From Squalus acanthias (taxonomy: Eukaryota), in assembly GCA_030390025.1 (NCBI GenBank), contig CM059449.1, positions 36,270,001 through 36,334,000 of the forward strand: 64,000 bases of DNA. Reading direction: 5' to 3'. Below, in pieces: positions 18,656 to 63,800 of the stretch (position 1 is its first letter; every line of letters starts with the position of its first letter). The translations under genes were made by a program, and so were the position numbers. Below the pieces are notes generated by a model. It saw nothing but the letters and a program-made list of their open reading frames with translations. It did not search any database and was not told where the DNA came from.

Positions 18656-18692
18656 GTGAGTGTTTTCATTTGAATGAATGCAGCGAACGACA

Positions 18693-19710: not shown

Positions 19711-19769
19711 GCATTGGTCAAATTTCACCTGATGATAACAGTTAAAAATCCACCCCTCCCCACCACCAC

Positions 19770-20245: not shown

Positions 20246-20342
20246 GGTAGATGTGTAAGTTTGAGGCTCCAATGCCATCTTATATCCCGCAGGTGGCTTA
20301 TCAGAAAAGCATAATGCACTGCCCGCAGTTTTCTATTCATTT

Positions 20343-20527
20343 GGAGTAAATTTTATATTTGGGCAATAGTGTAAAATGAGCGATATCGAACTGACTACCC
20401 AATATACTCCCTGTCTGATATTCCCTTCCGTTGACCTCAATGGACATGAAATCAGGCGGGGTGGAAAATGGGCGGACGATCCAATATCGTCCATTTTAAA
20501 CTCTCAGCCAATGTCAAAATTACCTCC
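20343..20527. mobile_element. Palindromic MITE-like element
   Basis: GGAGTAAATTTT ... AAAATTACCTCC ends; core CCGTTGACCTCAATGG. Confidence 0.7.
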
Positions 20528-20864
20528 ATGGAGACAAGTCCATTGTAACAAGGTTGGAGGACATGGAATGTTAGCCCATGCTGTGCAAACATAACTCAGT
20601 CCCCAATTTAATGTCATACATTCTGGCATGTATTGTGACAGCATTGGCTTATATTCTGGTATGTTATTTATAGTTAAGTAACAACATTGCTAGAAAATTG
20701 TGAAGGTGAGAAGTAGAGTTGGTTCACACACGGGGGTTTTCCAGAATTATAGCCTGAAGAGATGGGCAACAGAAAACTGAGGCATTAAAGCACCACCACT
20801 GGAGCGAGGGTGCAATTGCAACATGCTGACTTTACATCAGGAACTCCCATTTCAATTGTTGACG

Positions 20865-21830
20865 TATAGAATCATAGAATAATACAGCACAGAAAGAGGC
20901 AATTCGGCCCATCGTGCCTGTGCCGGATCTTTGAAAGCTATCCGATTAGACCCGCTCCCCTGCCCTTTCCCCATAGCCCTGCAACGTTTCCCCTTCAAGT
21001 ATGTGTCCAATTCCCTTTTGAAAGTCACGATTGAATCTGCTTCCAGCACCCTCTCAGGTAATGCATTCCAGATCACAACAACCCACTACGTAAAAAAAAC
21101 CTCATATCACCTCTGTTACTTTTTCCAATTACCTTAAAGCTGTGTCCTCTGGGTAGCGACCTTTCTCCATATTCACTCAATCCAAGGCATTCATGATTTT
21201 GAACATGAATCCAGAGGAATTGATAATTGGAAAAAGTTGATAAAAATGTGACCACAGGAAGTAAGTACATAAGAACATAAGAACATAAGAAATAGGAGCA
21301 GGAGCAGGTCATTTGGCCCCTCGAGCCTGCTCTGCCATTTAATGCGATCATGGCTGATACGATTTTGGCCTCAACTCCACTTTGCTGCCCGCTCCCCATA
21401 ACCCTTGACTCCCCTGTTGCTCAAAAATCTGTCTATCTCAGCCTTGAATGTATTCAATGACTCAGTTTCCACAGCTCTCTGGGGTAAAGAATTCCAAAGC
21501 TTCCCGACCCTCTGAGAAAAGAAATTCCTCCTCATCTTCGTCTTAAATGGACAACCCCTTATTCTGACAATGTGCCCCCTCGTTCTAGATTCACTGACGA
21601 GGGAAACATCCTTTCAGCATCAACTCTGTTCAACCCCCACAGAATCTTATATGTTACAATAAGATCACCTGGCATTCTTCGAATCTCCAATGAGTATAGG
21701 CCGAACCTGCACAACCTTTCCTCATAAGACAACACTTCCATCCCAAGAATCAACCTAGTGAACCTTCTCTGAACTGCCTCCAATGGAAGTATATCCCTCC
21801 TTAAATAAGGGGACCAAAACTGTACGTAGT
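20865..21830 (-). mobile_element. Two CR1 3' fragments
   Basis: WNALPERVLEADSIVTFKRELD and VQRRFTRLI..LSYEERL...GDLI; (ATAGAATC)n and (AAGAACAT)n tail repeats. Confidence 0.92.
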
Positions 21831-22471
21831 AGGTTGTGTGGACAGGTAGTACATAACATTTCTAATATAATACAGACAGATTTATAGTTAACTAGCAACA
21901 TTTATTCAATTTGGGAAGCGGAGAAGCAGAATTTTTTGGAGCACAGCGGTTTCTCTGGGAAATGCAAAGCTAAGTCCGACAGTGCCTCCACCGGTGGGAG
22001 GCTGTCATTGCAGCATGACCAGCTTGCGGTGGCAGCTTCCTCATAAAGGTGGACGTAGGAATTTATAAAGGGAAATGTTAAAACAAATGTAATAGAAATA
22101 TGAGAACAGGAAGTATGCTTTTGTGAACAGGAATTGCACACAGATGTAAGATTTTTTAAATGTTCTACTCAATTTCCTGTGGCTTACAGAAGACATTGGT
22201 TAGGACACTGTCGGGGTCTTTCATTTAGTTCTAAGCACCTAATATAGCAAAAATATTACAGAAAACAGCTGCTTTTAATTTTGGTGCCAATTGTTCTCTT
22301 TCTGTGCTATAAATTCTATGTCCCTGTGTGATGAACCCTGTTTTAGACGCCAAACTTCATTTCTACGCTTAGTAATGGAAAGAGTGACGAGAACACAACT
22401 GAAATTCTCAGATTTAGTGTGAATAGATGCGATAATTATGCAGCTATTGATCGATTCAATTACTGCTCTAG

Positions 22472-22735
22472 GTACTTACTACATTCAAGGACTGTTTGGC
22501 TGTGAGCTGAATGATGCCAATCCTAGTGTAGGGGTTTTGAAGTTGGCTTTTGATGGAAGATACACATTTAGTTTTGATAAAGAAAAATTGGTTTGGACCG
22601 TACATGATCCAGTAGCTCAGACCCTCAAAGTGAAATAGGATAAGGAAACAAAAATGAATCTTTATTTAGAAAATGACTGTGTGGATGTATGGAGGACATA
22701 CTATTCAATTGGAAACGCATCACTAACCAGACAAG
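22472..22735 (+). pseudogene. MHC class I-like alpha2 exon with nonsense codon
   Basis: TAG acceptor and GTAAG donor, 264 nt. TYYIQGLFGCEL...AFDGRYTFSFDKEKLVW...AQTLKVK*DKETKMNLYLENDCVDVWRTY..GNASLTRQ; TAG at 22636-38 replaces conserved W147; both alpha2 cysteines present. Confidence 0.95.
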
Positions 22736-22962
22736 GTAAGTTCAGAACAACCTGGGGGTAATTTAAAGTTTGGCGATAGTGTAGAACTGGCGATATTGGA
22801 TCAGATTCTGTTATAAACCTCTCTCCATTCTCCTTTAACAGGCGGCTGATCCGATATCACCTGTTTTACATTAGTGGCAAATGTTAAAATGACTTCCTTC
22901 ATTCTATTCTGAAATCTGTGTTTTTTATTGAAGTTGAAAATAACTGTCGTTCTATCATGTAG

Positions 22963-23235
22963 TTTCCCCTGAGGTCTCAGTTATTGCCAGGGCTGCTGAT
23001 CGTTGATTTCTCCATTGCATTGTGACTGGATTTTACCTGCAGTCCCTCAGCGTGACCTGATTGAAGAATGGCGAACATGTCCCTGAGACCAAATGTACTG
23101 GGTTATTACCCAATGAAGATGGGACCTATCAACTAACGACAACCCTTGAATTTGATCCGTATGATGGGGAACAATACTCCTGTAATATTGAGCACAGCAG
23201 CTTGCCGGGAGGGGGGGGGGGGACTGTCTTCTGGG
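22963..23235 (+). pseudogene. MHC class I-like alpha3 (Ig C1) exon with two stops and a dead donor
   Basis: VSPEVSV..R*FLHCIVTGFYLQSLSVT*LKNG...LLPNEDGTYQL...YSCNIEHSSL..VFW; TGA at 23004 and 23058; donor GTAAG changed to ATAAG at 23236. Confidence 0.95.
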
Positions 23236-24354
23236 ATAAGGACATGAGCAGCAATACTGAACAATCCATCAATAATAGCAACACTCACCCATACAGAGAT
23301 AGAGAGCAGAAAGAGGTCAATTAAATGAATGACTGAAGCAAATTGCACATTACCTCCCTGCTTGACTATTCTATTGCTCTAGAAATGAACTGTATATTCT
23401 GTCTCCCGGTGATGTTTATTTGTTACTATTGGGTCTTCTGTGCTGTTGCTGATGGACAAGAACAGGAAAATTGAAATCTTCCACTCCCTGTAACTGTCTT
23501 TTCTTATCCGTCACTTTTCTATGTCTTGCTCTTTCTCTCTACTTCTTTATACATCAGACAACACGTTTATTATGTCTGTTCTTCAGGCTGTCTGTGAATG
23601 TTCTTCATTCTTGCTCTCCCTTTTAGTCCATTTCTGTTATCTACTGACTCTTCCATAATCTGCACCTACCCCTCCTTGTGTGCTTCTCACACTCTTGCTT
23701 TCTCCAGATATCATACAATTTGCTTCTTACTGTCTATCTCCACTCCATAACAACACCCCACACACACTGCATGGTCTCAGAGTTAGATAACAAATGAAAC
23801 CCTCTTCATAGTCTATCTGGGTTCGAGAATGGATTAATCTACATTCACCACCCACTCTCAGACATCAGACGTTTTATTTGCCCGACTTGCTGTTGCTTCA
23901 ATGTTTGTTTCTGCTTTCTCATTGTTGTTCCCTTTCACTGTGGTGATGGAGCTGCTCGGTTTCTGAGCTGGAACTTTTGCTCTGTTCTGAGCTATTTCCC
24001 TCTCAGTTTCATTGTGGTTTTTGCTTCTCTTGTCGCTTTGCTCTGGTGGGGAGTGAGTGGACGGGTCTCTTTGGGATATTAGAGGAGGAGTGGGGAAGTG
24101 TTGTGAGGAAAGATCATTAAAATGTAGTGCAGTGGTGGGAGGGGTGATAAAATAATGCGGCTTGGCGGCAAGGGTGAGTGTGAGACTGGGAGCTGCAGGC
24201 AGGGAAGGTGGGTAAAACAAGAATCTGCAGCAAGAATGGAGGTTGAGACAGCTGGGGGGCAACCCCAGGAAATAAGCCTAGAAATTGCTGTTGGTGATTA
24301 ACAGGGTCAATAAATGACTCCAGGGGAACCTCCTGCTATTGGTTTAGACACAGC

Positions 24355-25394: not shown

Positions 25395-25761
25395 CTCTGG
25401 GTACCACGACCACAACCCTTTTCCACTGTCCTCCCAGCCGCACATTCTTATCGCTGGCCCAGCCCCGATCAGTCTAGAATCCATGCTTCACTCTTCACAG
25501 CCATTGCTTCTTCCGCCACCGCCCCCCAGTCACCTTTACAGCCTGCCCACCTCTCGTTGACCAGAGTCTGTGCTTTATTCCCAAAAACTGAACTTTATGG
25601 CTTGAAAGAAACCTGGCTCTGCCTTAGTGAAATAATACATTGTGCACTATATGGTGTGGGGATACTGTCCATATAAAACAGCGCATCATACAGGTTTCCA
25701 CTGATTAGATATAACTGTCAATCCGCACATATAATTATACAACCCTTGCTAATATATTCAG

Positions 25762-25867
25762 AAGGAAAAGTAGAGAAAGTCAAGCATGTGGGGCTGATTG
25801 TCGTGTGTGTACTGGTATTGCTGGCTATTGTTATAGTTTTAATCTATATGTGGAGGATAAAACAGAG
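25762..25867 (+). pseudogene. MHC class I-like connecting peptide/transmembrane exon
   Basis: CAG acceptor and GTAAG donor; EGKVEKVKHVGLIVVCVLVLLAIVIVLIYMWRIKQR is a hydrophobic span plus basic stop-transfer; phase compatible with alpha3. Confidence 0.85.
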
Positions 25868-25981
25868 GTAAGGCGAGGGAATAATGATGCAGTCTTATTT
25901 GTAAAAGTATGACACAGCGGCTTTGCAGAAAATCTTTTGGCCTGCCCCAGGTTTATACTTGAATTTTAAATATCTGTTATA

Positions 25982-26364
25982 AAGAAAGGAAAAGAAAAAC
26001 TTTCATTTATATCGCGCCTTTCACGACCTCAGGACTGCAAAAAGCGCTTTACAGCCACTGAAGTACTTTCGTTTTAAGTGTAGTCACTGTTGTAATGTAG
26101 GAAACGCGGCAGCCAAGTTGTGGACAGCAAGTCCCCACAAAGAGTGGTGTGATAATGATCAGATAATCTGTTTTTAATGATACTGAATGAGGGATAAATA
26201 TTGGCCAGGAAACCGGAGAGATCTCCCTTGCTCTTGTTCGAGCTAGTGTCACGGGATGTTTTACATTCACCTGAGAGGGCAGATGGAGCCTCGGTTTAAC
26301 ATTTCATCTGAAAGACGGCACCTCCAGCAGTGCGGCACTCCCTCAGTATTGCACTGGGGTGTCA
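25982..26364 (-). mobile_element. Deu-domain SINE (SacSINE1/AmnSINE1-like), head truncated at a CR1 insertion
   Basis: Reverse complement reads TGACACCCCAGTGCAATACTGAGGGAGTGCCGCACTG...GGTGCCGTCTTTCAGATGA...TCCTGGCCAATATTTATCCCTCA...GAAAGGCGCG tail. Confidence 0.85.
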
Positions 26365-26365
26365 T

Positions 26366-27750
26366 AGCAACATAGAAACATAGAAAAATAGGAGCAGGCG
26401 TAGGCCATTTGGACCTTCGAGATTGCTCCCCCATTCAATATGATCATGGCTGATCCTCTAACTCAATACCATATTCCCGCTCTCTCCCCATACCCCTTGA
26501 TGCCTTTTGTTTCTAGAAATCTATCTCTCTCCTTCTTAAATATATTCAGTGATGTGGCCTCCACAGCCTTCTGTGGTAGAGAATTCCATAGGTTCACCAC
26601 CCTCTGAGTGAAGAAATTTCTCCTCATCTCAGTCCTAAATGTCCTACCCCGTATCCTGAGACTGTGACCCCTCGTTCCAGACCCCCCAGCCAGGGGAAAC
26701 ATCCTCCCTGCATCCAGTCCGTCTAGCCCTGTCAGAATTTAACACGATTCAATGAGATCCCTTCTCATTCTTCTAAACTCTAATGAATACAGGTCTAGTC
26801 GAACCAATATCTCCTCATACGACAGTCTTGCCATCCCAGGAATCAGTCTGGTGAAAATTTGCTGCACCCCCTCTATGGCAAGTATATCCTTTCTTAGTTA
26901 AGGAGACCAAAACTGCACAAAATACTCCAGTGTGGTCTCAGCAAGGTCCTGTATAACTGTAGTAAGACATCCTTGCTCCTGTACTATAATCCTCTTGCAA
27001 TGAAGGCCAACATACCATGTGCCTTCCTAATTGCTTGCTGCACCTGCATGTTTGCTTTCAGTGACTGGTGTACAAGAACAACCAGGTCCCTTTGTACATT
27101 AACATTTTCCAATCTATCAACATTTAAATAATGCTCTACCTTTCTGTGTTTCCTACCGAAGTGGATAACTTCACATTTATCCACGTTATACTGCATCTGC
27201 CATGTATTTGCCCACTCACTCAACGTGTCTAAATCTCCTGGAAGCCTCGTTGCATCCTCCTCACAACTCACAATCCCTCCTAGTTTTGTGTCGTGAGCAA
27301 ACTTGGAAATATTACATTTGGTTCCGTCATCCAAGTCAGCGATATATATTGTGAATAGCTGGTGCCCAAGCACTGATCCTTGCGGTACCCCACTAGTCAC
27401 CGCCTGCCAAACCCGAAAAAGACCCATTTATTCCTACTCTCTTTTTCCTGTCTGTTAACCAATTACCAATCCATGCCAGTATATTACCCCCAATCCGATG
27501 TGCTTTAATTTTGCACACTAACGTCTTATGTGGGACTTTATCAAAGGCCTTCTGAAAATCCAAATACACCACATCCAGTGGTTCTCCCTTATATATTCTA
27601 CCAGTTACATCCTCAAACAACTCCAGTAGGTTTGTCAAACACGATTTCCCTTTCATAAATCCATGCTGACTTTGTCTAATCCCGTTGATATTTTCTAAGT
27701 GTCATGTTAACACATCCTTTATAATAGACTCTAGCATTTTCCCTACAACT
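26366..27750 (-). mobile_element. CR1 LINE RT and 3' end
   Basis: KGKSCLTNLL, YLDFQKAFDKVPH, GVPQGSVLG, SKFAHDTKLGG, TRGHSLRI. Confidence 0.96.
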
Positions 27751-27789
27751 ATCAGCCTAGATTTTAGCGCTCAAGTCTCTGGAGTAGGA

Positions 27790-28480
27790 TTAAAATGGTG
27801 CATTTATTGAGAACAAATGGTATCTTATCGTGGCAAAGTTGCCAATGGAATTCTAGGTTTAATCACAAAAGGTATAGAACATTTCAGCCAAGACGTAACT
27901 ATGAGGCTCTATAAAACCTTAATAAGACCTGAGTTAGAGCACTGTGTGCAGTATTGAATTTCACGCGATAGGTGGGATCTTGAGCTTTCCTGAAGCTACA
28001 AGGTGAATTCACTTGTATGCGGCCCGATAGCAGGAAACACAAATATAAGGAAAGGCTTGGAAAATGCGCATTTTTATTAGAACAATGCATATTACGGGTG
28101 ATATAATACAAGTGTTTAAAATGATGGAAGGATGGCTCAGGGTAGATAGAAGCAGATTGTTTCCAGTAGTTGAAGGTCAAGAATGAGGAGTTATAAATAC
28201 CAGGTTAAATGTTAGAGATTTAGGACAGAGGGTAGGAGATGGTTCTTTTCACAGAGCGTTGTGAGGCTGTGGAATCCACTTCCAGTAATAGAGGTTGAGG
28301 CAGAAACTATGGCAACATTTAAGATTAGATTCAGAAGTTGGACAAAGGGAAAAGGGGTTTAAGGGATATGAGAACAGGGTGGTAAATGTGATTAGGAATA
28401 TTTACTCATGTGTAGAGTAAATGCCGATACTCACTGGTTGGGCTGAAGGATTTGTTTCCATGTTGTAACTTCTGTATATT
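27790..28480 (+). mobile_element. Old CR1 3' fragment
   Basis: ANGILG...LYKTLIRPELEHCVQY, FFSQSVVRLWNPLP remnants. Confidence 0.8.
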
Positions 28481-28541
28481 TCGATATGCACGTGCCCTAA
28501 GATAAGTGAAATTGAAATCCAGTTCTTTATTAATCAATTTA

Positions 28542-28699
28542 GGGGGTGAAATTGGTCTTCGGCAATAACACATAATAGCCACTAGTGAATCGGCCGCCCT
28601 TTCATTGAAGTCAATGGAAAAGCCCTTGGGGTAGGAGTGAAACTGGCTGGTGATTCGCTATCGCCAGTTGGCGTTACCGCCTGAGCCCAATTTCACCCC
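28542..28699. mobile_element. Palindromic MITE-like element
   Basis: GGGGGTGAAATTGG ... CCCAATTTCACCCC terminal inverted repeats; core TTCATTGAAGTCAATGG. Confidence 0.75.
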
Positions 28700-28871
28700 A
28701 TTAAGTTTTCTAACAGGTGGGCCACACATGAAAACTTTCCACATGGTAACACCATCAGCATCAACATGATTCTATGTTTGATTGATGTGTTCAGAGGGAA
28801 GCATACTTGCTGAAAACATTTATTACCAACATCATCGTATGATTACAAGCGTTCTCTCTCTGTCTTTTCAG

Positions 28872-28944
28872 AACAAGGCTGACACTTAAAATACTTACTG
28901 ATGCCGCACCCCACTTCCTACCAATCAAAAGAACCCAGATTTAA
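28872..28944 (+). pseudogene. Possible cytoplasmic/terminal exon of the class I-like gene
   Basis: Strong polypyrimidine acceptor (CTCTCTCTGTCTTTTCAG); in phase with the TM exon gives RTRLTLKILTDAAPHFLPIKRTQI*. No recognisable motif. Confidence 0.3.
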
Positions 28945-29467
28945 AAAAGGTCAGCATCACACTCCATGGAAAGAGTCATTTCGTCTGGCACGTTTTAAAG
29001 GCGAACCTTAATTCCTAGTAGTGAATGAAAGGGGGCTGACAGGACACAGATCCACAATAATTGTCTCAGTGACAATGCAAGTTTAATAACCTTCCTGATT
29101 CAGTATTGTAGCGAATACTTTATCTTCCCACAGGCCACATTCATACTGCAGTCTGAGGATACATAAGGGCTGGTTTGGCTTAACGCCGGATGTTTTAGTG
29201 TAAATCCAGATTCAGGACCCCACGTGACTGTCAGGTGAAGTAGAGGGAGACTGCCTCCTTCGGAATATTCCTTCTCACCAAATCTAAGGTTGTGATGTAA
29301 ATGGTTTCAGAGTGGCATTAAGGTAAAGGGAGGAAATATAATCAGAAGATCACAAAGCGGACTAGAACTCCCAGGTGTTAAAAAGAGTGCCCTATTAGGG
29401 CAAATATTGCCCGTCTCTACTATGGTCATGGCACCTTCATAGGGGCAAGACAGGTTGGAGAGTCATT

Positions 29468-29648
29468 GGGAGTCATTTTCAGATTTGGAGATAAGGTAAA
29501 ACGGGCGATATCTGATCAGCCGCCCGTTGCATACCTCTCCCAACTTTCTTTCCCATTGACTTCATGGAAAAATCGGAAGAGCTGTACAAAAGATACCCGA
29601 TCCGATATCGCCCGTTTTACATTAACACCAATAATTAAAATGACACCC
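29468..29648. mobile_element. Palindromic MITE-like element
   Basis: GGGAGTCATTTT ... AAAATGACACCC ends; internal GTAAAACGGGCGATATC / GATATCGCCCGTTTTAC; core TTCCCATTGACTTCATGGAA. Confidence 0.75.
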
Positions 29649-30159
29649 ATTGGTGTATAAGTTTGTCTTCGGCGGGAGTTCAAATCGTTTGCTAATGACT
29701 TGACAGAAAATGGGAGAGAGCGACTTGGCAGCAAATCGGGCGATAGTGACTTGGCAGGACGGCAGTCCGGGATGCAAGCAAGTCTCTTCAGTTACATCGC
29801 CTGTGGAACTGGTTGGTGCCTGCACAACACTAACGGGAGGATAAGGCTGTAGGCCCCATCTGGAGGCCATTACCGGCACGTTAAATCCGGGCGAAGGCAG
29901 TGAGAATCGACCGCCCTTTAGGCCCGCTGTTTCTGTGCACTAAACTAACTGCCACTGAGCTAACTTTAAGGGGAAGAACCATGAAAAGAGAATGAGCAAG
30001 TCACTTCATCTATATAGTATGCTCTGCACCAACATCTCGGGATGGTCCAACATTTGGATTTCACTCCCTAGATTTCAAAGGTGTTTAACAAGAACCTGAG
30101 AGGGGCAAACGCGAGGTTTCCATTGGATCCAAGAACATGCTGAAATAGTCATCGTGAAT

Positions 30160-31105
30160 CATAGGAACATATGAACATAGGAAAAGTATAAGGCCTGCTA
30201 CGCCATTCATTGAGATATTAGCTGATCTGCGACCTTACTCCATAAACACGCCTTTCGCCCATAGCCCTCAATCCCTATGGTTAACAGAAAGCTATCAATC
30301 TACGATTTAAAATTAACAATTGCTCTTGCATCAATTGCCATTTGCGGAAGTGCGTTCCAAACGTCTACCACCCTTTTTGTGTCGAATTGTTTCCTAATTT
30401 CACTCCTGACAGATCTGGCTCTAATTTTTAGACCATGCCCCCTAGTACTTGAATTCCCAACCAGTGGAAATAGTTTTGCTCTATCTACCCTTTCTGCATC
30501 CCTTAATATCTTGAAAATTTCGAACAGATCACCACTTAACCTTCTAAATTGTAGGGAATACAAACCTAATTTGTGTAATCTCTCCTCATAACTTAAACCT
30601 TGAAGTCCGGGTATCATTCTGGTAAACCTACGCTGCACTCCCTGCAAGGCCAATAAATCCTTCTTAAGGTGTGGTGCCCAGAACTTTTCACAGTACTCCA
30701 GGTGTGGTCTAACCAGGGTGTTGTACAAGTTGCAGCATAAGTTCTACCCTCTTGTATTCTAGACCTCTAGATATAAAGGCCAGCATCTCATTAGCCTTTT
30801 TGATTATTTTCTGTACCTGTTGATGACATTTTATTCATCTATGTACCTGGACCCCAAAGTCTCTTTGGACCCCCAATGTTTTTAGCCTTTGACCATTCAG
30901 AAATAATCCTGTTCTATCAATTTTACGTACAAAGTGGATGAACTCATATTTGCCTACATTGAAATACATTTGCCACAGTTTTGCCCATTCACATAATCTG
31001 TAGATATCCTGTCGTAACTTTATGCTTCCAAATACACTGCCTACAATTCCACATATACTTGTGTCGTCGGCAAATTTGGATATATGGTTTTCTATGTATT
31101 CATCT
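30160..31105 (-). mobile_element. CR1 3' fragment
   Basis: SKFADDT, YNTLVRPHLEYC, VQRRFTRMIPGL..LSYEERL, TRGHGLKI. Confidence 0.95.
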
Positions 31106-32077
31106 AAGTGCAATTGCTTTATTACTGAAAAAACTCAATTTGCATAAACATTTCACCGCGACTTATATTTCAGTCACTTTATTAAAATATTACTAACTTG
31201 TTTAACATTGCAGGAACATTGTCAAATCTCATCTGCAATTGCAGAAACTGGCTCTTTAGACGTTACATTTTGGCCGCGTGGAATAAAGGCACGCCAGGGA
31301 TTTAAAATATGTTTTGTTAATATTTATACATTCATAATTATCAGAATTGACACCGACATTGGCCTCAGATAAACAGTCTACTCTTGTGAGCAGAAACAAT
31401 GACCATGAAAACACTTTTCAATTGCTGGAAACACAGCCGAGCCCGATCCTGCCACACACTCACATTTCACCAGCAGCATCGCCAACACAGTGGTCCGGAG
31501 CAAATCCCGAGGCCACTTCTGCCTCTGTAACTGAAGGGAGCGAGGCCAGTTAAGTAATCTGCTGCTAACCCTGGGATTACAATGGGAATGAGAATAAGAC
31601 GGTTTCTATCACCGGTGGCGAATCTGCAACTTCGGTTTCAGGCTCCAGCGGCAAGTTGAAAATCTTCGCCAGAGAGTCAAGTTGAAAGTTTAAATGTCAC
31701 ACAACTAAAAATGGATATGGGGAATATTTTGCAGGGAACCTTCTAATTTGGCGTAGAGTAAAATGGGGAGAATTGGATCGCCTGTTGTTTATAAACGCCG
31801 CCCGAATCTCCTTCCATTGACCTCGCTCCCGCCAGAGGTGAAAGTTCCACCGACCGGGGGTGAAATTCACCTTCAGGTGCGGTGTGAAACAGGCGGGAGC
31901 AGGTCGGCCGCTCATTACACACCCGCCCGACTTTCCTCTCCATTAAACTCGACCGAAAAGCACATCGTGTTGGGCGAATAACAGGCGGCTGATCGGCTGC
32001 TGCCCGTGTTGAATAAATAAGATGGAAGCGAGTCTCAAGTCTTTGTAGTCAGCTCTGGTTAGACTCAGACCTTTCAA

Positions 32078-32424
32078 TTATTTCCGTAAATTAGTAATTA
32101 CAGACAAGGGATATTGAATCAGATTCTTTAACTCCTCTCTTAATTTAGTCTGGGACACTGCATAAATAATGGTGTTTGTGCAGGAACTCAAATTCTGCAG
32201 CATATATCCAGTTTATTCCATGATGGTGACATTATTACGGTAGTCTGTGTGCAAGTATTGAATATCCATAATTTGTAAATATATTTGATGAATAAAAGTT
32301 ACCGTCCGTAACAGGATAAAACTGCCAGATATGACCAGCGGTAGAACGATGGATTTCCTACGGCTGTTTCCTTTGGCGAGACCGCACTTTCCCCGGTGGA
32401 GAATCGCGATGGTCATCAAGTTGG
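32078..32424 (-). pseudogene. GPR139-like GPCR exon-2 pseudogene with large internal deletion
   Basis: Acceptor TTTGCAG, then ANLMTIAILHRGKCGLAK joined to SRRKSIVLPLVISGSFILL...TIME*TGYMLQNLSSCTNTIIYAVSQTKLREEL; colinear with both ends of 45799-46712. Confidence 0.93.
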
Positions 32425-33049
32425 CTGCAAACAGGGGCAGGACAGGCGGTGGAGGGGAAGTGAAATACATCAGGATATCAAAATTAAATCGTACAATTAA
32501 ACCGGGTATTAATTAATGCTGATTGTTCCTTCACTCAAATCATTCAATCCCTGTGAAACACACTCAAGATGGCTCCTGGGCTGGCAGCTCAATTCTGTTC
32601 AACTGTATCCGTGGTCATCCATTGCCATCCTTTGTCCTTTCTTCCCCCAAACTCATTTCTTCCATTGCTTAAGATACTCTGGCTTTGATAGCGAAGGCAT
32701 TTCAGCGGAAACTACACGTTCAACCTACAAGTTTAAAGCTCCCCCTGCAGAGCCAGCTGCTCATCCCTCGACCCAGCGTGTCTTTGTACTCACTGAGCTC
32801 TTTCAACTGCCGGAACTCTGGTGAAACTTAACCTCCATCACTGGATTCCTCGCGAACAGGAGTCCGTTGCTCTACTGATGACAGTGTTTCACTCAGCGGC
32901 TGTGGCTCTGCTCTGCTTTGCAGTCGCTTCAAGTTTTATGCTGCTGGATTCTTTTGTCAATTTCTTTTCCGATCTCCTGGACTTCTTTGGATATCTAGAC
33001 TACGTTTCTGCTTTGTACTACACTGGATTACATCAATAGACGGAGTCTT

Positions 33050-45340: not shown

Positions 45341-45659
45341 GTGTGGGGTTTCTGAGAGTCGGTGAGTGAGGGGTAGGGAGTCTGAAAGTCGGTGACTAAT
45401 TGAGTTCTAGAGCAAAACAATTCCTTCGACACTTTAATATATTCCTTTCAAGACAGAAGAAAAGTGCTCTTATGTATCAGTGTGGTTTCCCCGAGCTTAT
45501 TCAGTCTTTCTCATTGGCTGTTAAGCGCTTTAGGAAGTCTTGAGGTCGTGAAATGGGCTATATAAATGCAATTATTTCATTGTTTCGAACTTGCCCGTAT
45601 TCAATCCAAATCCAGACAGTCAAGGTTGCTTCACACAATATTGTGTGGGTGCAGTGGGG

Positions 45660-45798: not shown

Positions 45799-46712
45799 TT
45801 ATTTTAATAATTTCGCTAACTTAATAATTAGCTCAAAGGGACTCTTAATCACATTCACCAGCTGCCCTCTGAATTTATTCTGCGCAACTGCATAAATAAA
45901 TGTGTTTGTGCAGGAACTCAAACTCTGAAGCATGTATCCAGTATCTTCCATGATGGCGAGAGGGTTATCGGAAGCTGTGAACATGAACTGAATATGTACA
46001 ATTTGTACACAGATATAATATGTAAAAGTTACCAACCATAACAGGATAAAACTGCCTGAGATGGCAAGCAGTAAAATTATGGATTTTCTCCGACTCTCTA
46101 TCTCTGGATCTTTGTGATTCTCAGTATTGTTATTGCCTCTGAGTCCCCTCCTGACTCTACTGGCCATCAGAATGTGCCTGATGGTCAAAACATTGAACAA
46201 CAAAATCAGAACAAATGGGGCGAATGGTGTTAAAACAATGTCAAACCAGTAGAATGCCGTCCACACAGGTGAGGTATAGAAGCTTGATTTAACTGTACAG
46301 AACCACGATTCGTTGTCAATTATTTCCTGATGTTCAATTGTAAAGTACATTGGAATGTTTTCTACAAAGATTAGCCCACACACTGTTGCTATAACGACGG
46401 CCGCCGTCTTTTCGGTGCTATATTTGACTCTCAGCTTCTGGGAACAAATGGCCACAAATCGATCCAAAGTGAAAGAGACTGTTAACCAGACGGAACAATC
46501 AATGGCAACAAAACGTAGGGCGAGGCTTATACTGCAGATAGAAGTGTAGTTCAGAAATGAATTTGTGAAATAAATATTATTAATCTCATACATTATCACA
46601 TTAACAATAATGAACAGTAGATCCGCCGCAGCCATGGCAAACAGGTAACGAGTTATGCATTTTGAGAGGCCGCACTTTCCTCGGGAGAGAATCACAATTG
46701 TCATTAAATTAG
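45799..46712 (-). CDS. GPR139-like: GPR139-like class A GPCR, exon 2 (end of TM1 through C-terminus)
   Basis: Open 304-codon frame after acceptor CTCTCTCTTGCAG. AMAAADLL (TM2), SVWLTVSFTLDRFVAIC (TM3), ECL2 Cys, PFVLILLFNVLTI (TM5), SFILLW (TM6), LSSCTNTFIY (TM7). Confidence 0.95.
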
Positions 46713-47559
46713 CTGCAAGAGAGAGGAAAAAAATGAAAATAAGCGATTCTCACGACAAAAGGATTATCATTGTTTAAAAATGAGTAACAAGTATTGCGGT
46801 TTCAATCAACTCGTTCTGTCCTTATATGGATTAAATGGATCATTCCCGAGCAAAACAATTCTTTATCCAGACACATTAATATATTCCCTCCAAGACACAA
46901 AATGAGCTGTTATGGATCAGATTGTTTTCCCGGACTTTATTCATTTTATATCGGTTTTGTTACAAAGTTTGCTTCACACAATAGTGTAATAAACACAGGC
47001 ACTGTAGAGCAACATCCATACATCCCCTGCAGCTTTACTCTAAATTGCTGTAATGAGAATGTGCACCGCACACACAGACCTGGCGCATTTATTATAAATA
47101 ACCTGAGGGATACATTGTACCGTCCAGTTGTGTGATAATTGGACTCACAATGTGACACTTCATACAGTGGATGAGGAAACAGATGGAAATCATTGGAAAG
47201 GTGTTGCCCCGGTACATGCCCTGTGAGTAATGATGTTGGTCAGGTGGCTCTGTGCAACGTTGTATTAAGGCACAATGTAAAAAGAAAGAATTTCACACCG
47301 GACTCGCAACTAGTTACAAACAGCTGAAATTAACCGCGTTAAAGCAGTTTGGCACATAGATGCTTGGACATACTGGATGCGTTTCCGTAAAATACCAATT
47401 CATAGTCATTACTGGAAACACGCATTTTACAACAGAACAAAAATATTTTAATCGCCTGTTTGACAAGTAGATTACATAAAATGGCCGAGAACTATTGCAA
47501 TGACACGTCAGCCCATGGAAGGTTCACTGGCTCCTTGTAACATGGAGACAGATATATAT

Positions 47560-47842
47560 AGAAACATAGAAACATAGAATCTAGGAGCAGGAGTAGGCCA
47601 TTCGGCCCGTCGAGCCTGCTCCACCATTCAATACGATCATGGCTGATCATCCAAATCCAGTACCCTGTCCCCTGCTTTAATCCCCACAGTACACATATCC
47701 CACCCTACCCCCGTAACCCCACATATTTAATTCCCCCTAACATATCCCATCCTATCCCCATAACCCCACATATTTAATCCCCCCCTAACACTAAGGGTCA
47801 ATTTATCATAGCCAAATCAACCTAACCCGCACATTTTTGGCC
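47560..47842 (-). mobile_element. CR1 3' tail and SINE-like fragment in the GPCR intron
   Basis: (ATAGAAAC)n tail, AGGAGCAGGAGTAGGCCATTCGGCCC, then AAGGGTCAATTTATCATAGCCAA..CCTAACC. Confidence 0.7.
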
Positions 47843-49036
47843 ATATAATAGATCACTAGTGCTCAGTAACAGGTGTTTACAGGGTATCTCATGGACCCAG
47901 AGACGGCAGGCGTCCGGGCCAAATGGCGTGTTTATCCACACAAAGTAGGACCAGTTAAATAACGTGTTTCTCGTCAACCCAGACAATCGCAACTGAGCAA
48001 TATGGAATGGGCCGCACCCCATCCGATATTCAGTTCCATTGGCTTCAATCCGGCGTCCGATTGGCTAAGATCCGCATCTCCGAAGAGGAAATTACAAAAA
48101 CACTGAGTCCTTTTCGCGCTACTTCAGAAGTCCGATTTCAGTCATGATTGTCCAAATCCGTACCTCTGCTCCACACAGAATGATATTTCTGCTCAGGGAC
48201 ATGACCCGCCATTTTCCTGCAACTTTAGTGCTTCTTCGGGATGTGCCAGGGAGCCTGCCCTGAGCAGGCAGTCGGTAAATGGCCAAGGTTCGGATTGTAC
48301 TGAGGCGGGGTGGACTCTTTAGTCTAGGTCTCACCGCCCTGTTGTACCTCATGGTCTGTGCCACAACAGAGGGTGGCGAGGAGGGGGACTGAACTGCAGG
48401 CAAAAAATTGGCATTGCGATCTGCCCCGGAGTCCTGCTGATCCAGATCTCTGGCACAGTGGGGACAGGCAGAAGATTGTAATCTAGGATTTCAGAGTTAG
48501 TCAATACCATCCTCAGCATCCTTAAATCTAAGCGAGAACCCCAAGCTGCCGGTGGAGATCGGTAGCCAGAAGTTCCTGTTCCCCGAGATCAGAAACTGGC
48601 ACGGCCGGCAGGGTTCCGATTGTCTTCTCCGGACAGTCCGTGTGCTTGTTCTCTGCTGCCCACAAACCATTTAAGTGGAAGGTACAGCAAATAGTGTCGA
48701 TCCGAGTGCTGGAAAGCAACAGTGCAATTTAGATTGGCTACACCTGCCGAGTGCTGTGACACGGGAGCCAATAATCTGCGTTAATATTATGACCGAGAAT
48801 AAATTGTTACAATTGTAGATTTTGAAACTTCTGAAAAAATCCTGTTATCCGTCTGATGCTTAGATTAAAAAAATGTTGCGATATGTGATCAAGTTCCTCA
48901 TTTATCTGATATCAGAAACTAATGACCTTACATCAAACACATCAAAACAAACAAATGGCTGAATTAGACAGACAGTAAGAACAGTAATACAGTTAACACT
49001 GAGACAGGTTATGGATAACTGTATGTAGTGACTTAC

Positions 49037-49106
49037 CAGGGACACCAACCATTGCCAAAATAGGATAGTAAATTGCCGATATTTGAACAATTATAGGCCG
49101 CCCCAT
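49037..49106 (-). CDS. GPR139-like: GPR139-like GPCR, exon 1
   Basis: ATG at 49106 gives MGRPIIVQISAIYYPILAMVGVP plus G, then GTAAGT. The phase-1 join to exon 2 gives ...YYPILAMVGVPANLMTIVILS (327 aa total). Too short for the ORF track. Confidence 0.92.
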
Positions 49107-49178: not shown

Positions 49179-49184
49179 TTTATA
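49179..49184 (-). promoter_or_regulatory. Candidate TATA box of the GPCR gene
   Basis: TATAAA on - strand ~73 nt upstream of the ATG. Confidence 0.55.
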
Positions 49185-53990: not shown

Positions 53991-53994
53991 TTAA

Positions 53995-56738: not shown

Positions 56739-58650
56739 GGCGAAGATTTTCACCTTGTCGCTGGAGCCTGAAATCGATGTTGCAGATTGGCCACCGGTGC
56801 TAGAAATTCGTCTTATTCTCATTCCCATTTTAACCACAGGGTTAGCAGCAGAGTACTACACTGGCCTCGCTCCCTTCAGTTACAGAGGGAGAAGTGGCCT
56901 CGGGATTTGCTCCGGACAACTGTGTTGGCGATGCTGCTGGTGAAATGTGAGTGTGTGGACAGGATCGGGCGCGGCTGTGTTTCCAGTAATTGAACAGTGT
57001 TTGCAGTCACTGTTTCTGCTCACAGATGGAGACTGTCTACCTGAGGCCAATGTCGGAGTCAATTGTACTAATTAGGAAGGTATAAATATTAACAAAACAA
57101 AATTTTAAATCCCTGGCGTGCCATTATTCAGTGCGGCCGTTACGTAATGTCTAAAACGCCAGTTTGTGCAAATGCAGATGAGATTTGACAATGTTCCTTC
57201 AAAGTTAAACAAGTTAGTAATATTTGAATTAAGTGACTGAAACATAAGTCGGGGTGAAATGTTTATGCAAATTGAGTTGTTTCAGTAGTAAAGCAATTGC
57301 ACTTAGATGAATACATGGAAATTCATATATCCAAATTTGCCGACTACACAAAATAGGTGGAATTGTAGGCAGTGTAGATGGAAGCATAACATTGCAAAGG
57401 GATATTGACAGATTAAGTGAATGGGCAAAACTGTGGCAAATTGATTTCAATGTAGGCAAATGTGAGGTCATTCACTTTGGACCTAAAAAGGATAGAACAG
57501 GATACTTTCTAAATGGTGAATTCTACAAACAGTGGAGGTCCAAAGAGACTTGGGGGACCATGTACATAGATGATTAAAATGTCATCAACAGGTACAAAAA
57601 ATATTCAAAAAGGCTAATGGGATGCTGGTCTTTATATATAGAGTTCTAGAATACAAGAGGGTTGAACTTATGCTGCAGCTGTACAAAACCCTGGTTAGAC
57701 CGCACTTGGAGTACTGTGAACAGTTCTGGGCACCACATCTTAGGAACCATTTATTGGCCATGGAGGGAGTGCAGCGTAAGTTTACCAGAATTATATCCGG
57801 ACTTCAAGGGTTAAGTTACAAGGAGAGATTGCACAAATTAGGGTTGTATTCCCTAGAATTTAGAAGGTTAAGAGGTGATCTGATCGAAATTTTCATGATA
57901 TTAAGGGATACAGAAAGGGTAGACAGAGAGAAACTATTTCCACTGGATGGGAATTCTAGGCCTAGGGGGCATAGTCTAAAAATTAGAGACAGACCTTTTA
58001 GGAGTGAAATTAGCAAATACTTCTACACACAAAGGGTGCTGGAAGTTTGGAACACTCTGCCGCAAACGGCAATTGATGCTAGAACAATTGTTAATAGTAA
58101 ATCGTAGATTAATAGCTTTCTGTTAACCAAAGGTATTAAGGGCTATGGTGCAAAGGTGCGTATATTGAGTTAGGTCGCAGATCAGCCAGGGTCTCATTTA
58201 ATGGCGGAGCAGGCTTAATCCTCTTCCTATGTTCATATGTTCCTCTGATTAACGATGATTATTTCAGCGTGTTCTTGGATCCAAAGCAATTCTCGCCTTT
58301 GACCCTCTCAGGTTCTGGTTAAACACCTTTGAAATCTAGGGAGTGAAATCCAAATGTTAGACAATCCCGAGATGATGGTGCAGAGCACAGTACAGAGAAT
58401 GAAGTGACTTGTTCATTCTCTTTACATGGTCCTTCCCCTTCAATGTAGCTGAGTGGCAGTTCGTTTAGTGCACAGGAGCAGCGGGACTAAAGAGTGGTCG
58501 ATTCTCACTGCTTTCGCCCGGCGTTAACGGGGCGGTAATGGCTTCCAAATGGGGTCGGTAGCCTTATCTTCCCGGTAACGTTGTGCAGGTTCCAATCAGT
58601 TCCACAGGCGATGGAACTGGAGAGATTTGCTTGCACTCCGGACTGCCGGG

Positions 58651-58935
58651 CTGCCAAGTCACTATCGCCCGATTTGCTGCCAAGTCGCAATCGCCATTTT
58701 GCTGCCATGTCACTATCGCCCGATTTGCTGGCAAGTAGCTCTCTCCCATTTTGCTGCCAAGTCGCTTTCTCCCATTTCGCTGCTAAGTTGATCTCTCCCA
58801 TTTTGCTGGCAAGTAGCTCTCTCCCATTTTGCTGCCAAGTCGCTTTCTCCCATTTCGCTGCTAAGTTGATCTCTCCCATTTTGCTGGCAAGTCGCTCTCT
58901 CCCATTTTGCTGCCAAGTCATTATCACCCGATTTG
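58651..58935. repeat. 26-bp minisatellite (~11 copies) with 78-bp higher-order unit
   Basis: Unit CTGCCAAGTCGCTCTCTCCCATTTTG; a three-unit block is repeated nearly exactly. Confidence 0.92.
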
Positions 58936-61900
58936 AACTACCGCCCAAGACAATTTTACACCCCAATGGGTGTCATTTTAATTATTGGTGTTAATGTAAA
59001 ACGGGCGATATTGAATTGGGTATCTGTTATTCACCTCTTCCGATTTTTCCATGAAGTCAATGGGAAAGAAAATTGGGGGAGGTGTGCAACGGGCGGCTGA
59101 TCAGATATCGCCCGTTTTACCCTATCTCCAAATCTAAAAATGACTCCCAATGACTCTCCAACCTGTCTTGCCCCTATGAAGGTGCCATGATCGCAGTAGA
59201 CACGGGCAATATTTGCCCTAATGGGGCATTATTTTTAACACCTGGGAGTTCTAGTTCGCTTTGTGCTCTTCTGATTACATTTCTACCCTTTACCTTAATG
59301 TCACTCTGAAGCCATTTACATCACAACCTTAGATTTGGTGTGAAGGGATATTCTGGAGGAGGCAGTCTCCCTCCACTTCACCTGGTAGTCAGGTGGGGTC
59401 CTGGATCTGGATTTACACTTAAACATCTGGCGTTAAGCCAAACCAGCCCTTAGGGATCCTCAGGCTGCAGTGTGAATGTGGCCTATGGGAAGAGAAAGTA
59501 CTCGCTCCAATGCAGAATCAGGAACGCTATTAAACTTGCATTGTCACTGAGACAATTAGTGTGGATCTGTGTCCTGTCAGCCCACTTTCATTCACTTCTA
59601 GGAATTAAGGTTCGCCTTTAAAACGTTTCAGAGGAATTGACCCTTTCCATGAAGTGTGATGCTGACCTCCATTCTTAAATCTGGGTTCTTTTGATTGGCA
59701 GGTTGTGGGGTGCTGCATAAGGAAGTATTTCAAGTATCCACCTTGTTCCGAAAAGACACACTTTCAGAGAGAACACTTGATGATGTTGGTAATAAAGGTT
59801 TTTTAGCAAGTATGCTTCCCTCTGAACATATCAATCAAACATAAAATCATGTTGATGCTGATGGTGTTACCATGGGGAAAGTTTTCATGTGTGGGCCACC
59901 TGTTAGAAAACGTAAAGAGGTGACATTGGGCTCAGGGGGTAGCGCCAAATGGCGATAGCGAATCACCAGCCAGTTTCACAACAACCCCATGGGCTTTTCT
60001 ATTGACTTCAATGAAAGGGCGGCCGATTCACAAGTGGATATTTTGTGTTATCGTCGAAGACCAATTTCGCCCCCTAAATTGATTAACAAAGAACTGGATT
60101 TCAATTTCACTACACTTAGGGCACGTGCATATCGAAATAAACAGAAGTTACAACATGGAAACAAATCCTTCAGCCCAACCAGTGCGTATCGGCATTTACT
60201 CTCCACACAAGTAAATATTACTAATCACATTTACCCACCCTGTTCTCATATCCCTTCAACCCCTTTTCCCTTTGTCCAACTTCTCAATCTAATCTTAAAT
60301 GTTGTGATAGTTTCTGCCTCAACTTCACTCACTGGAAATGGATTCCACAGCCTCACAACGCTCCGTGAAAAGAATCGTCTCCTACCTTCTGTTCTAAATC
60401 TCTAACATTTAACCTGGTATCTGTAACCCCTCAATTTTGACCTTCAACTATTGGAAACCGTCTGCTTCTATCTACCCTGAGCCATCCGTCCATCATTTTA
60501 AACACTTGTATTATGTCACCCGGTATAGCATTGTTCAAATAAAAAGGCGCATTTTCCAAGCCTTTCCTTATATTTGTGTTTCCTTCTATCAGGCCGCATC
60601 CTAGAGAATTCACCTTGTAGCTTCTCGAAAGCTCAAGATCCCACCTATCGCGTGAAATTCAATACTGCACACAGTGCTCTAACTCAGGGCTTATTAAGGT
60701 TTTATAGAGGCTCATAGTTACGTCTTGGCTGAAATGTTCTGTACCTTTGGGGTTAAACCTAGAATTCCATTAGTAAGTTTGCCACGATAAGATACCATTT
60801 GTTCTCAAACAATTCAATAAATGAACCATTTTAATCCCACTCCAGAGAATTGAGCATTAAAATCTAGGCTGATAGTAGTAGGGAAAATGCTAGAGTCTAC
60901 TATAAAGGATGTGATAACAGGACACTTAGAAAATATCAACGGGATGAGACAAAGTCAACATGGATTTATGAAAGGTAAATCGTGTTTGTCATACCTACTG
61001 GAGATTTTTGAGGATGTAACTGGTAGAATAGATAAGGGAGAACCAGTGGATGTGGTGTATTTGGATTTTCAGAAAACCTTTGATAAAGTCCCACATAAGA
61101 GGTTAGTGTGCAAAATTAAAGCACATGGGATTGGGGATAATACACTGGCATGGATTGGAAATTGGTTAACAGACAGGAAACAGAGAGTAGGAATAAATGG
61201 GACTTGTTCGGGGTGGCAGGCGGTGACTAGTGGGGTACCGCAGGGATCAGTGCTTGGGCCGCAGCTATTCACAATATAAATCAGTGATTTGGATGAGGAA
61301 ACCAAATGTAATATTTCCCAGTTTGCTGACGACACGAAACTTGGAGAGATTGTGAGTTGTGAGGAGGATGCAAAGAGGCTTCAAGGCGATTTAGACAAGT
61401 TGATTGAGTGGGCAAATACATGTCCGATGCAGTATAACGTAGATAAATGTGATGTTATCCACTTCGGTAGGAAAAACAGAAAGGTAGAGCATTATTTAAA
61501 TGGTGATAGATTGGGAAATGTTGATGTACAAAGGGACCTGGGTGTTCTTGTACACCAGTCACTGAAAGCAAACATGTACGTGCAGCAAGCAGTTAGGAAG
61601 TCAAATGCTATGTTGGCCTTCATTGCAAGAGGATTTGAGTACAGGAGGAAGGATGTTTTACTACAGTTATACAGGGTCTTGGTGAGACCACACCTGGAGT
61701 ACTGTGTGCAGTTTTGGTCTCCTTACGTAAGAAAGGATATACTTGCCATCGAGGGGAGCAACGAAGGTTCACCAGACTGATTCCTGGGATGGCAGGACTG
61801 TCGTATGAGGAGAGATTGGTTCGACTAGGCCTGTATTCATTAGAGTTTAGAAGAATGAGAAGGGATCTCATTTAAACGTCTTAAATTCTGACAGGGCTAG

Positions 61901-62749
61901 AAAGACTGGATGCAGGCAGGATGTTTCCCCTGGCTGGGGGGGGGGGGTCTAGAACGAGGGGTCACAGTCTCAGGATACGGGGTAGGACATTTAGGACTGA
62001 GATGAGGAGAAATTTCTTCACTCAGAGGGTGGTGAACCTGTGGAATTCTCTACCACAGAAGGCTGTGGAGGCCCAGTCACTGAATATATTTAAGAAGGAT
62101 ATAGATAGATTTCTAGACGCAAAAGGCATCGGGGGTATGGGGAGAGAGCGGGAATATGGTATTGAGATAGAGGATCAGCCATGATTATATTGAATGACGG
62201 AGCAGTCTCGATGGGCCGAATGGCCAATTCCTGCTCCTATTTTTCAATGTTTGTATGACACTCCAGTGCAGTACTGAGGGAGTGCCGAACTGTCGGAGGT
62301 GCCGTCCTTCAGATGAGATGTTAAACCGAGGCCCTATCTGCCCTCTCAGGTGGATGCAAAAGATCCCATGACACCAGCTCGAAGAAGAGCAGGGGAGATC
62401 TCTCCGGTTTCCTGGCCAATATTTATCCTTCATTCACGATCATTAAAAACAGATTATCATTATCACACCACTTTTTGCGGGAACTTGCTGTGCGCAACTT
62501 GGATGCCGCGTTTCCTACATTACAACAGTGACTACCCTGAAAACGAAAGTACTTCATTTGCTGTAAAGCACTTTGGGACGTCCTGAGGTCGTGAAAGGCG
62601 CGCGATATAAATGAAAGTTTTTCTTTTTCTTTCTTTATAACAGATATTTACAATTCAAATATAATCCTGGGGCAGGCCAAAGGATTTTCTGCAAAGCCGC
62701 TGTGTCATACTTTTACAAACAGGGGTGTAACATTATACCCTCGCCTTAC

Positions 62750-62855
62750 CTCTGTTTTTTCCTCCACATATAGATTAAAACTATAACGATAGCCAGCGAC
62801 ACCAGTACACACACGACAATCAGCCCCACATGCTTGACTTTCTCTACTTTTCCTT
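62750..62855 (-). CDS. Transmembrane exon of a second MHC class I-like gene (rest of gene expected beyond the window end; functional status unknown)
   Basis: Intact CAG and GTAAG sites; EGKVEKVKHVGLIVVCVLVSLAIVIVLIYMWRKKQR; 4 differences in 106 nt from 25762-25867. Confidence 0.8.
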
Positions 62856-63800
62856 CTGAAAAATATTGGCAAGGGTTGTATAATTATATGTGCGGATCGA
62901 CAGTTGTATATATAATCCGTGGAAATCTATGGCCCTGCTCATGGTAAGTAGGATGATGCGCTGTTTTATATGGACAGTATCCCTACACCATATAATGCAC
63001 AATGTATTATTTCATTAAGGTTTCTTTAAAGCCACAAACTTCACTTTTTGTGAATAAAGCACAGATTCTGGTCAAAGACAGGTGGTCAGGCTGTAAAGGT
63101 GACTGGGGGGTGGTGGAGGAAGAAGCAATGACTGTGAAGAATGAAGCATGGATTCTAGACTGATCGGGGCTGGGCCAGCGATAAGAATGTGCTGCTGGGA
63201 GGCCAGTGGAAAAGGGTTGTGGTCGTGGTGCTCAGCGAGGCAGGGGGAAAGCTAGCAGTCCTCTACCACGCAAACCCCCATGGATCGCTGTGTGAGGGGA
63301 GCCAGGTAGGAAAGTGGCAGAGGTCTGTGTCTGCGAGCCTGGTGAAAGGGGCAATATGAGGGGTAAGTAATGGCAGTTGAATAGATAATGCCACTGTGCC
63401 AGCTCCCAGGGCTGGGGGATCGAGCTTCTGACCGTCCCCGCAGCTCCGTGTGATGGGATGGGGCTCAAGGTGCAAAGTTTACATTTAATTCACACAGTTA
63501 AATGTTTGCCTTCTTTTACTTATCTACAGCAACATGGCTGCTGTCTCCAAAACCCAGACTGCTCCACAGTGCCACTCAGTGGTCAGAGTCTGTAACTGCT
63601 TACAGACTCCGTTTCTTTTATGCGAATTTTCAATGTCCTGCAAGAGCAGGTTTGTGGTATCGTTCAACAATAGGCGGCACCATATCATTTTCAATCTGTC
63701 ACCTAATGTAATGTTAGATTGGTGCAGCAGCTTCGGAATCTTAACCACAGTCACCATTTTCAAAATAGACAGATAGAAATCGCGAGATAGATAGATAGAG

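Follow-up and report, generated by a model that had tools for sequence, protein, structure and literature searches.

The locus at positions 45799-49106 of a 64,000-nucleotide stretch of the Squalus acanthias genome (GCA_030390025.1, contig CM059449.1, positions 36,270,001 to 36,334,000; hereafter the window) raises the question of what a shark receptor that resembles GPR139, but departs from it at many functional positions, actually is. A preliminary description made from the DNA alone had proposed an intact, divergent paralog of GPR139 with altered activation motifs. We find that the locus encodes an intact two-exon class A G-protein-coupled receptor (GPCR), and that this receptor belongs to a large elasmobranch family evolving by birth and death. 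Sequence comparison places the family within a wider GPR139/GPR142-related group in which its closest outside relative is not GPR139; taken alone, the window gene is an unexceptional member of the family. The receptor is read from the minus strand and has the following features:

49037..49106, minus strand: coding exon 1, 70 nt (23 codons plus 1 nt), encoding the N-terminus and first half of transmembrane helix 1 (TM1), with the donor GTAAG
46713..49036, minus strand: phase-1 GT-AG intron (2,324 nt) that contains a high-copy repeat at about 47515-47877
45799..46712, minus strand: coding exon 2, 914 nt, from the rest of TM1 to the stop, entered through a pyrimidine tract followed by CAG
49179..49184, minus strand: TATA-like box of putative function, 78 nt upstream of the receptor ATG
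45433..45438, minus strand: ATTAAA, a possible poly(A) signal located 360 nt beyond the receptor stop

As originally proposed, the two exons join in phase at GT-AG sites into a complete seven-helix protein. The spliced coding sequence of 984 nt specifies 327 residues and a stop, contains no internal stop, and matches Pfam 7tm_1 (E 4e-22), while the open run of exon 2 extends over 303 codons, as compared to a maximum of 139 among 2,000 shuffles. An AlphaFold2 model of exon 2, built from a 110-row alignment, has a predicted local distance difference test score (pLDDT) of 88 and displays seven helices and a hairpin in extracellular loop 2 (ECL2). With the cysteines that join TM3 to ECL2 and residues N1.50, D2.50, R3.50, P5.50 and Y7.53, the protein has the attributes of a class A receptor. 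The motifs listed in the preliminary description are all present in the translation as named: DRF (residues 107-109), LWLV (248-251), NTFIY (293-297) and, in intracellular loop 1 (ICL1), GKCGLSKC (35-42). Its account of a minimal, unglycosylated N-terminus also holds, as no sequon occurs there; sequons are found at N78 (ECL1), N157 (ECL2) and N218 (ICL3). Family-wide comparisons used 99 aligned shark rows (295-345 residues, from the best 120 of the 2,302 database matches described below and the first 60 new cluster representatives). The ECL1 sequon is common to 57/99 of these rows. The start layout of the receptor (Met, 10-13 residues, then an aromatic pair) is likewise found in 57/99, none of which (0/57) has an N-terminal sequon, and because homologous rows share this layout both the start and the splice are supported. 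An in-frame stop lies immediately 5' of the receptor ATG. It closes a 17-codon in-frame upstream open reading frame (49160-49107, minus strand) that abuts the ATG and could dampen translation of the receptor. Four runs presumed to be RNA, compared at 80% likeness, yielded short pieces on exon 2 that resemble paralogs and numerous contigs of intronic repeat; none bridged the intron and a single contig extended from exon 1 into it, an outcome that speaks neither for nor against splicing.

A search with exon 2 returned 2,302 proteins at E<=1e-10 out of 4,007 candidates. Among the best 120, the 116 named proteins all come from sharks or rays (4 are unnamed): 36 from Heterodontus, 32 from Heptranchias, 18 from Pristiophorus and 30 from ten other species, so that the 18-36 near members per species are lower bounds drawn from the best 120 of 2,302 matches. 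Within the same 120, the closest proteins are from two squalomorph sharks, Heptranchias (P0001, XP_067830247.1; 77% identity) and Pristiophorus (P0002; 75%), and the paralogs are clustered, a single 74.5-Mb contig bearing 27 of the 36 Heterodontus genes and a single 21.1-Mb contig bearing half (16) of the 32 from Heptranchias. The receptor shares with its family an ICL1 C..S.C motif, acids at positions 3.37 and 5.42 (D/E3.37 and D/E5.42), absence of P6.50 and the short N-terminus. RefSeq annotates the family genes under a GPR139-type name, which is misleading, and some carry sex peptide, FMRFamide, galanin or vasopressin receptor-like labels instead. ESM Atlas matches comprise only clusters of the same name and invertebrate FMRFamide/Srw-like clusters. 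In VIA-align many peptide receptors are tied at Z 24-25 (GPR139 is at rank 28, Z 24.5), and the fold therefore does not pick a family.

GPR139 is nonetheless the nearest characterised relative of the receptor, ranking first among solved structures by sequence (PDB 7vug, E 8.6e-9) and in Foldseek. Like GPR139 and GPR142, the receptor has two exons and a YY...G.PAN sequence in TM1, lacks P7.50 and C6.47, and keeps F3.33 and W6.48. It differs from both in that R6.51, H187, N271 and P6.50 (human GPR139 residues) are not kept and in its acidic pocket, and the shark family comprises many divergent paralogs per genome as opposed to one conserved gene. Orthology to GPR139 was considered and rejected: identity to the human protein is 22-25%, the pocket residues H187, R244 and N271 are replaced, and many paralogs are far closer. 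PMC7318219 gives 70% identity between zebrafish and human GPR139, from which it follows that a protein at 22-25% is not the ortholog, and the same source describes the GPR139 gene as having two exons. Nesting of the receptor among many paralogs excludes a one-to-one relation to GPR139 as well, albeit indirectly, the trees having been built without a GPR139 sequence. Thus, the earlier call of a divergent paralog as opposed to the ortholog is upheld, as is its placement in a large uncharacterised repertoire. The coelacanth gene model P0271, from a related lineage, reads through a donor at the same site in TM1, between P and AN, which suggests that the TM1 intron is shared across the GPR139/142-related group. 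The preliminary description had placed the human GPR139 intron at this same site, which is its putative position.

A second part of the preliminary description fares less well, namely the altered activation motifs, which are not peculiar to this gene. In the 99 shark rows F3.51 is present in 89 and T7.50 in 96, and P6.50 is kept in only 3. Human GPR139 itself reads TIDRY, LWAPR (LWAP) and NFFLY at these motifs, which is why loss of C6.47 and P7.50 is inherited. P6.50 is retained in 19/19 amphibian sister rows as compared to 4/71 rows of a second single-copy lineage (the two comparison sets used throughout), and its loss is the only family-level change among the activation motifs. The short N-terminus is common to both single-copy lineages, and of 103 columns conserved in the family the window gene differs at only 3, the family median being 4. 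Judged from these alignments, the seemingly altered features are family traits, most of them ancient.

The relatives outside sharks and rays were reached by a profile-free search over all cluster representatives. In a 57-row tree the window gene is nested in a set of 33 shark rows (support 92/84) that joins three salamander rows at 100/100 through a long branch (1.3). Its own terminal branch is short (0.08), and together with P0001 and P0002 it forms an orthologue-like triplet (98-100 support). A salamander protein used as query gave 25 matches (20 amphibian, 1 sturgeon and 4 elasmobranch), of which the amphibian ones span frogs, a salamander and a caecilian at about one per species. As both this query and a coelacanth query rely on shared words, the taxa reached represent a minimum range; no chimaera sequence is among the matches listed. 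The sister of the elasmobranch family is thus an amphibian and sturgeon gene that the matches suggest to be single-copy. This sister gene (e.g. Xenopus tropicalis XP_031757816.1) resembles the receptor in its short N-terminus, W6.48 and a D-P-E..R-(R/K)-(R/K)-S stretch before TM6. It is unlike the shark family in yielding about one match per species, in having a near-invariant basic pocket (+3), and in keeping P6.50 and K6.51. The earlier description of a lineage-specific gene is accordingly half right: the family is expanded in elasmobranchs, but it is not purely a shark one, as its sister gene occurs in amphibians and sturgeon.

The coelacanth query defines the second, separate single-copy lineage, with 145 matches and its own clade at 99/99. 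The best 120 of the 145 derive from sharks, ray-finned fish, amphibians and reptiles (turtles and squamates). Mammals and birds are missing from the named rows among the best 120 of 145 matches to this conserved single-copy gene (P0234 and relatives), and the fusion of two of its models to TMEM183A offers a hint as to the neighbouring gene. The lineage is probably included in what Rinne et al. 2019 (PMC6504862) call 'GPR210'; in that paper 'GPR210A/B' denotes orphan sets without a name, close to GPR139/142 and present in coelacanth, gar and teleosts, and the word 'shark' is absent from its main text. True GPR139 or GPR142 sequences do not occur among 276 proteins gathered for comparison, and neither the names nor the scores of the coelacanth-query and salamander-query matches pointed to one. 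P0252, P0253, P0256 and P0261 represent a further teleost (anchovy) lineage and amphioxus relatives that have R6.51 in common, which gives the group a minimum age at the level of the chordates.

What distinguishes the shark family from these relatives is its ligand pocket. Residues were numbered from conserved anchors, and 37 class A positions were taken as the pocket. In the 99 shark rows the entropy of the pocket is 1.47 times that of other TM positions (p 1e-4, an optimistic value, as are the other p-values, because the rows are related and are nearest matches instead of a random sample), and within species the ratio is 1.71 in Heptranchias, 1.46 in Heterodontus and 1.70 in Pristiophorus. 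In the single-copy lineages it is 0.24 (19 amphibian rows) and 0.70 (71 rows of the second lineage). The G-protein face of the shark proteins is conserved, with 0.40 bits as compared to 1.20 at other TM positions. At eight pocket sites, picked post hoc after inspection of the data, 22 distinct patterns occur in 22 Heptranchias rows and 26 in 29 Heterodontus rows, versus 2 in 19 amphibian rows. These alignments are most fairly read as a release of the pocket from ancestral constraint in the shark family. Its charge is also reversed: K/R6.51 is present in 3/99 shark rows versus 19/19 amphibian and 71/71 second-lineage rows, D/E occurs at both 3.37 and 5.42 in 82/99 versus 0/19 and 0/71, and the net pocket charge is +3 in amphibians versus a shark mean of -3.2 (-4 in the window gene).

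The preliminary description had also noted that GPR139 responds to aromatic amino acids, and had proposed a repertoire that may sense amino acids or peptides. For GPR139, PMC5430874 reports that H187 and N271 are needed for activation, that R244 is a modelled polar contact, and that Trp and Phe are ligands. GPR139 residues F109 and W241 are kept as F91 (F3.33) and W249 (W6.48) in the window gene, while H187, R244 (6.51) and N271 correspond to D181, T252 and Y283. These replacements make GPR139-style sensing of aromatic amino acids unlikely. By analogy with the amine binding of teleost trace amine-associated receptors (TAARs) via Asp5.42 (PMC4695389), and because a basic pocket has turned acidic, the likeliest ligands of the family would be cations such as amines, polyamines or basic peptides. 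Clade III TAARs of teleosts offer a further likeness as a large expansion with an acid at 5.42 (same source). The comparison concerns how the receptors work and not membership, as the shark proteins lie on a different branch of class A and have a second acid at 3.37. Membership in the TAARs was rejected: Asp3.32 is absent (R in the window gene), and GPR139 ranks above aminergic receptors by sequence.

We tentatively favor, at somewhat less than even confidence, a model in which the family serves as a combinatorial repertoire of sensors whose members share a G-protein output, bind copy-specific cationic ligands and act in a chemosensory epithelium. One intracellular face is kept (DR, the ICL1 cysteine motif, D-P-E..R-R-K-S before TM6, and Y7.53), and because of this conservation a single G-protein output is probably common to all members. 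The pocket varies among copies, and each member may therefore bind different cationic ligands at a site in which the ancestral basic residue (K/R6.51) would have been replaced by acids (D/E3.37 and D/E5.42). The chemosensory epithelium is the likeliest site of action, and this is the weakest step of the model. The family has the features of a chemosensory repertoire in its clustered paralogs, pseudogenes, variable pocket and conserved signalling face, the pocket excess being weak in a stricter control.

Several points weigh against this model. When only the extracellular halves of the helices are compared, the shark pocket ratios fall to 1.15-1.23 (p 0.02-0.15) and the excess is not significant within single species, although the contrast between the shark family and the single-copy lineages persists (p 0.003 and 0.0002). 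Relaxed selection could give the same pocket pattern. The trees contain no true GPR139 or GPR142 rows. Most family members have L, I, V or G at position 3.32, and the Arg3.32 of the window gene could partly neutralise its acidic pocket or alter its own selectivity. According to PMC11979771, the 50 genes most specific to a catshark brain-and-olfactory library include no GPCR. Finally, the neighbourhood of the receptor is immune and not olfactory, as it contains the following class I exons of the major histocompatibility complex (MHC):

18394..23243, plus strand: UGA-type non-classical MHC class I gene, with alpha1 at about 18394-18660 (open), alpha2 at about 22470-22740 (one stop) and alpha3 at about 22965-23243 (two stops)
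9774..10088, plus strand: second alpha1-like exon in a more advanced state of decay, with 71% identity to the first alpha1 over 319 nt

The UGA-type gene lies ~23 kb from the receptor. Its alpha1 exon matches PDB 9ch4 (E 1.4e-41), a chain that on visual comparison corresponds to the UGA row listed for the nurse shark by Verissimo et al. 2023 (supplement of PMC10751288), and UGA is called CD1-like and MHC-linked in PMC12562908, which cites a personal communication. Two UGA-type copies are present in the window, both apparently broken, though UGA is described as single- or low-copy; this suggests local duplication of the CD1-like lineage. The 44- and 30-bp arrays among three minisatellites in the window (19 bp at 53994-55342, 44 bp at 8393-8757 and about 30 bp at 16442-16709) each precede a class I alpha1 exon by 1-2 kb. 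None of the MHC framework genes B2M, BRD2, RXRB and COL11A2 was found within the 64-kb window, which we think likely to be located in the MHC.

The supplement of PMC10751288 provides a parallel from the sawfish, whose MHC chromosome (chr34) bears 13 'probable GPR139' genes. Ten of them are in tandem at 13.38-13.68 Mb, between the non-classical class I (MHC-Ib) genes on the B2M side and the next MHC-Ib group, and other genes of the same name lie beside C4 and TRIM genes. The chr34 genes are identified by name only, and the main text of that paper contains no occurrence of GPR, GPCR, G-protein or odorant. Our sawfish match P0078 is on a contig of 19,913,265 bases, compatible with a chr34 annotation that ends at 19,829,058, and it falls with the window gene in the same 64-row clade of a quick 90-row tree (Shimodaira-Hasegawa-like approximate likelihood ratio test, SH-aLRT, 100). 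The closest catshark match is on a contig of 144,966,053 bases and, because this is smaller than a catshark MHC chromosome that reaches at least 163.4 Mb, is off that chromosome. The subfamily cluster thus adjoins non-classical class I genes in this shark and probably does so in the sawfish; whether the linkage is ancestral is evenly balanced.

This setting accommodates a different role, in which the family would comprise diversified receptors of leukocytes or barrier tissues that sense cationic peptides or microbial amines, with one subfamily in the MHC-Ib region. Formyl-peptide receptors and MRGPRs provide the comparison for such immune families. The nearby CD1-like class I genes, the sawfish tandem between MHC-Ib groups and the shared clade of P0078 and the window gene all speak for this role. 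Linkage is not function, and human MHC-linked olfactory receptors are not known to be immune. Furthermore, the catshark match is off the MHC chromosome, the sawfish genes are known by name only, and family members are on several contigs within one species. We consider an immune role rather unlikely, and less likely than the sensor repertoire.

The window also records how the family changes, as it holds a broken paralog and the arms of an inverted duplication:

32078..32425, minus strand: exon-2 remnant of a broken paralog, with ~186 codons (TM2-TM5) deleted and one in-frame stop
56739..63235, no strand assigned: inverted duplication arm, 7.6-14 kb upstream of the intact gene, with a 26-bp array at 58650-58919, 9.5 kb from that gene and not directly before its promoter
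25397..31670, no strand assigned: other inverted duplication arm, adjoining the broken paralog, with a short 26-bp array at 29697-29757

The remnant is 75.6% identical to the intact exon 2 over 295 nt, no exon 1 for it was found within the 64-kb window, and the ratio of nonsynonymous to synonymous substitution (dN/dS) between the two is 0.6 over 94 codons, one side being a pseudogene. The arms of about 6.3 kb are 87-90% identical, which, set against the 75.6% of the receptor copies that they flank, indicates that the duplication is younger than the split of those copies. Both arms have fragments of long interspersed nuclear elements (LINEs) in common, and the 26-bp array comprises about 10 units in one and 2 in the other. 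A broken paralog together with a ~6-kb inverted duplication fits birth and death. Elsewhere in the window, a 291-codon open frame (38619-39494, plus strand) matches Maestro HEAT repeats (E 5e-7) and is probably an intronless copy of an MROH-like gene.

These rearrangements bear on an account in which segmental duplication within immune-type regions rich in repeats was the main source of family growth, pockets drift under relaxed selection and most copies are redundant. The inverted duplication, deleted paralog and broken class I copies within one 64-kb window fit this account, as does the weak pocket excess in the stricter control. Drift is harder to reconcile with a G-protein face and 103 columns that are strongly conserved across lineages spanning sharks and rays, with retention of the two acids in 82/99 rows, and with orthologue-like triplets that persist across shark orders (window gene, P0001 and P0002). 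We regard it as unlikely. That the window copy is intact but silent, a young pseudogene, is very improbable: its neighbours are broken and a short upstream frame ends at its start codon, but its frame is open, its splice sites are canonical, a TATA-like box precedes it, its terminal branch is short and it differs at no more than 3 of the 103 conserved columns. Last, the idea that the gene is GPR139 itself, or a paralog with GPR139-like sensing of Trp and Phe retained, draws on the first rank of GPR139 among solved relatives and on the kept F3.33 and W6.48, and given the low identity, the far closer paralogs and the D181, T252 and Y283 replacements it is very unlikely, orthology being largely refuted.

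We found no paper describing the elasmobranch family in the open-access literature (subscription papers not covered), and it was not found in the whale shark supplement (files 1-12 of 24) or in the searchable supplement files of the little skate. The family is thus apparently an undescribed, expanded class A sensor repertoire, and the amphibian and sturgeon sister, the reversal of pocket charge and the adjacency to MHC-Ib genes are new here. PMC8455134 portrays cartilaginous fishes as having comparatively few GPCRs and olfactory receptors. This picture is challenged by a family that numbers at least 18-36 near members per species and is concealed under one automatic name. The two conserved acids give a concrete basis for a ligand screen and a mutation test, and the single-copy sister gene of Xenopus and axolotl offers a laboratory handle on ligand and expression. 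Taken together, and with considerable doubt about the whole, sharks and rays may possess an overlooked chemosensory family that arose from a GPR139-related ancestor still present as a single gene in frogs and salamanders, that converged on the acidic TM5 amine site of fish TAARs, and of which an ancient subfamily is clustered inside the MHC-Ib region. If this is true, the MHC-Ib subfamily cluster would echo the MHC-linked odorant receptors of mammals, and its adjacency to MHC-Ib genes bears on how the linkage between receptor clusters and the MHC originated.

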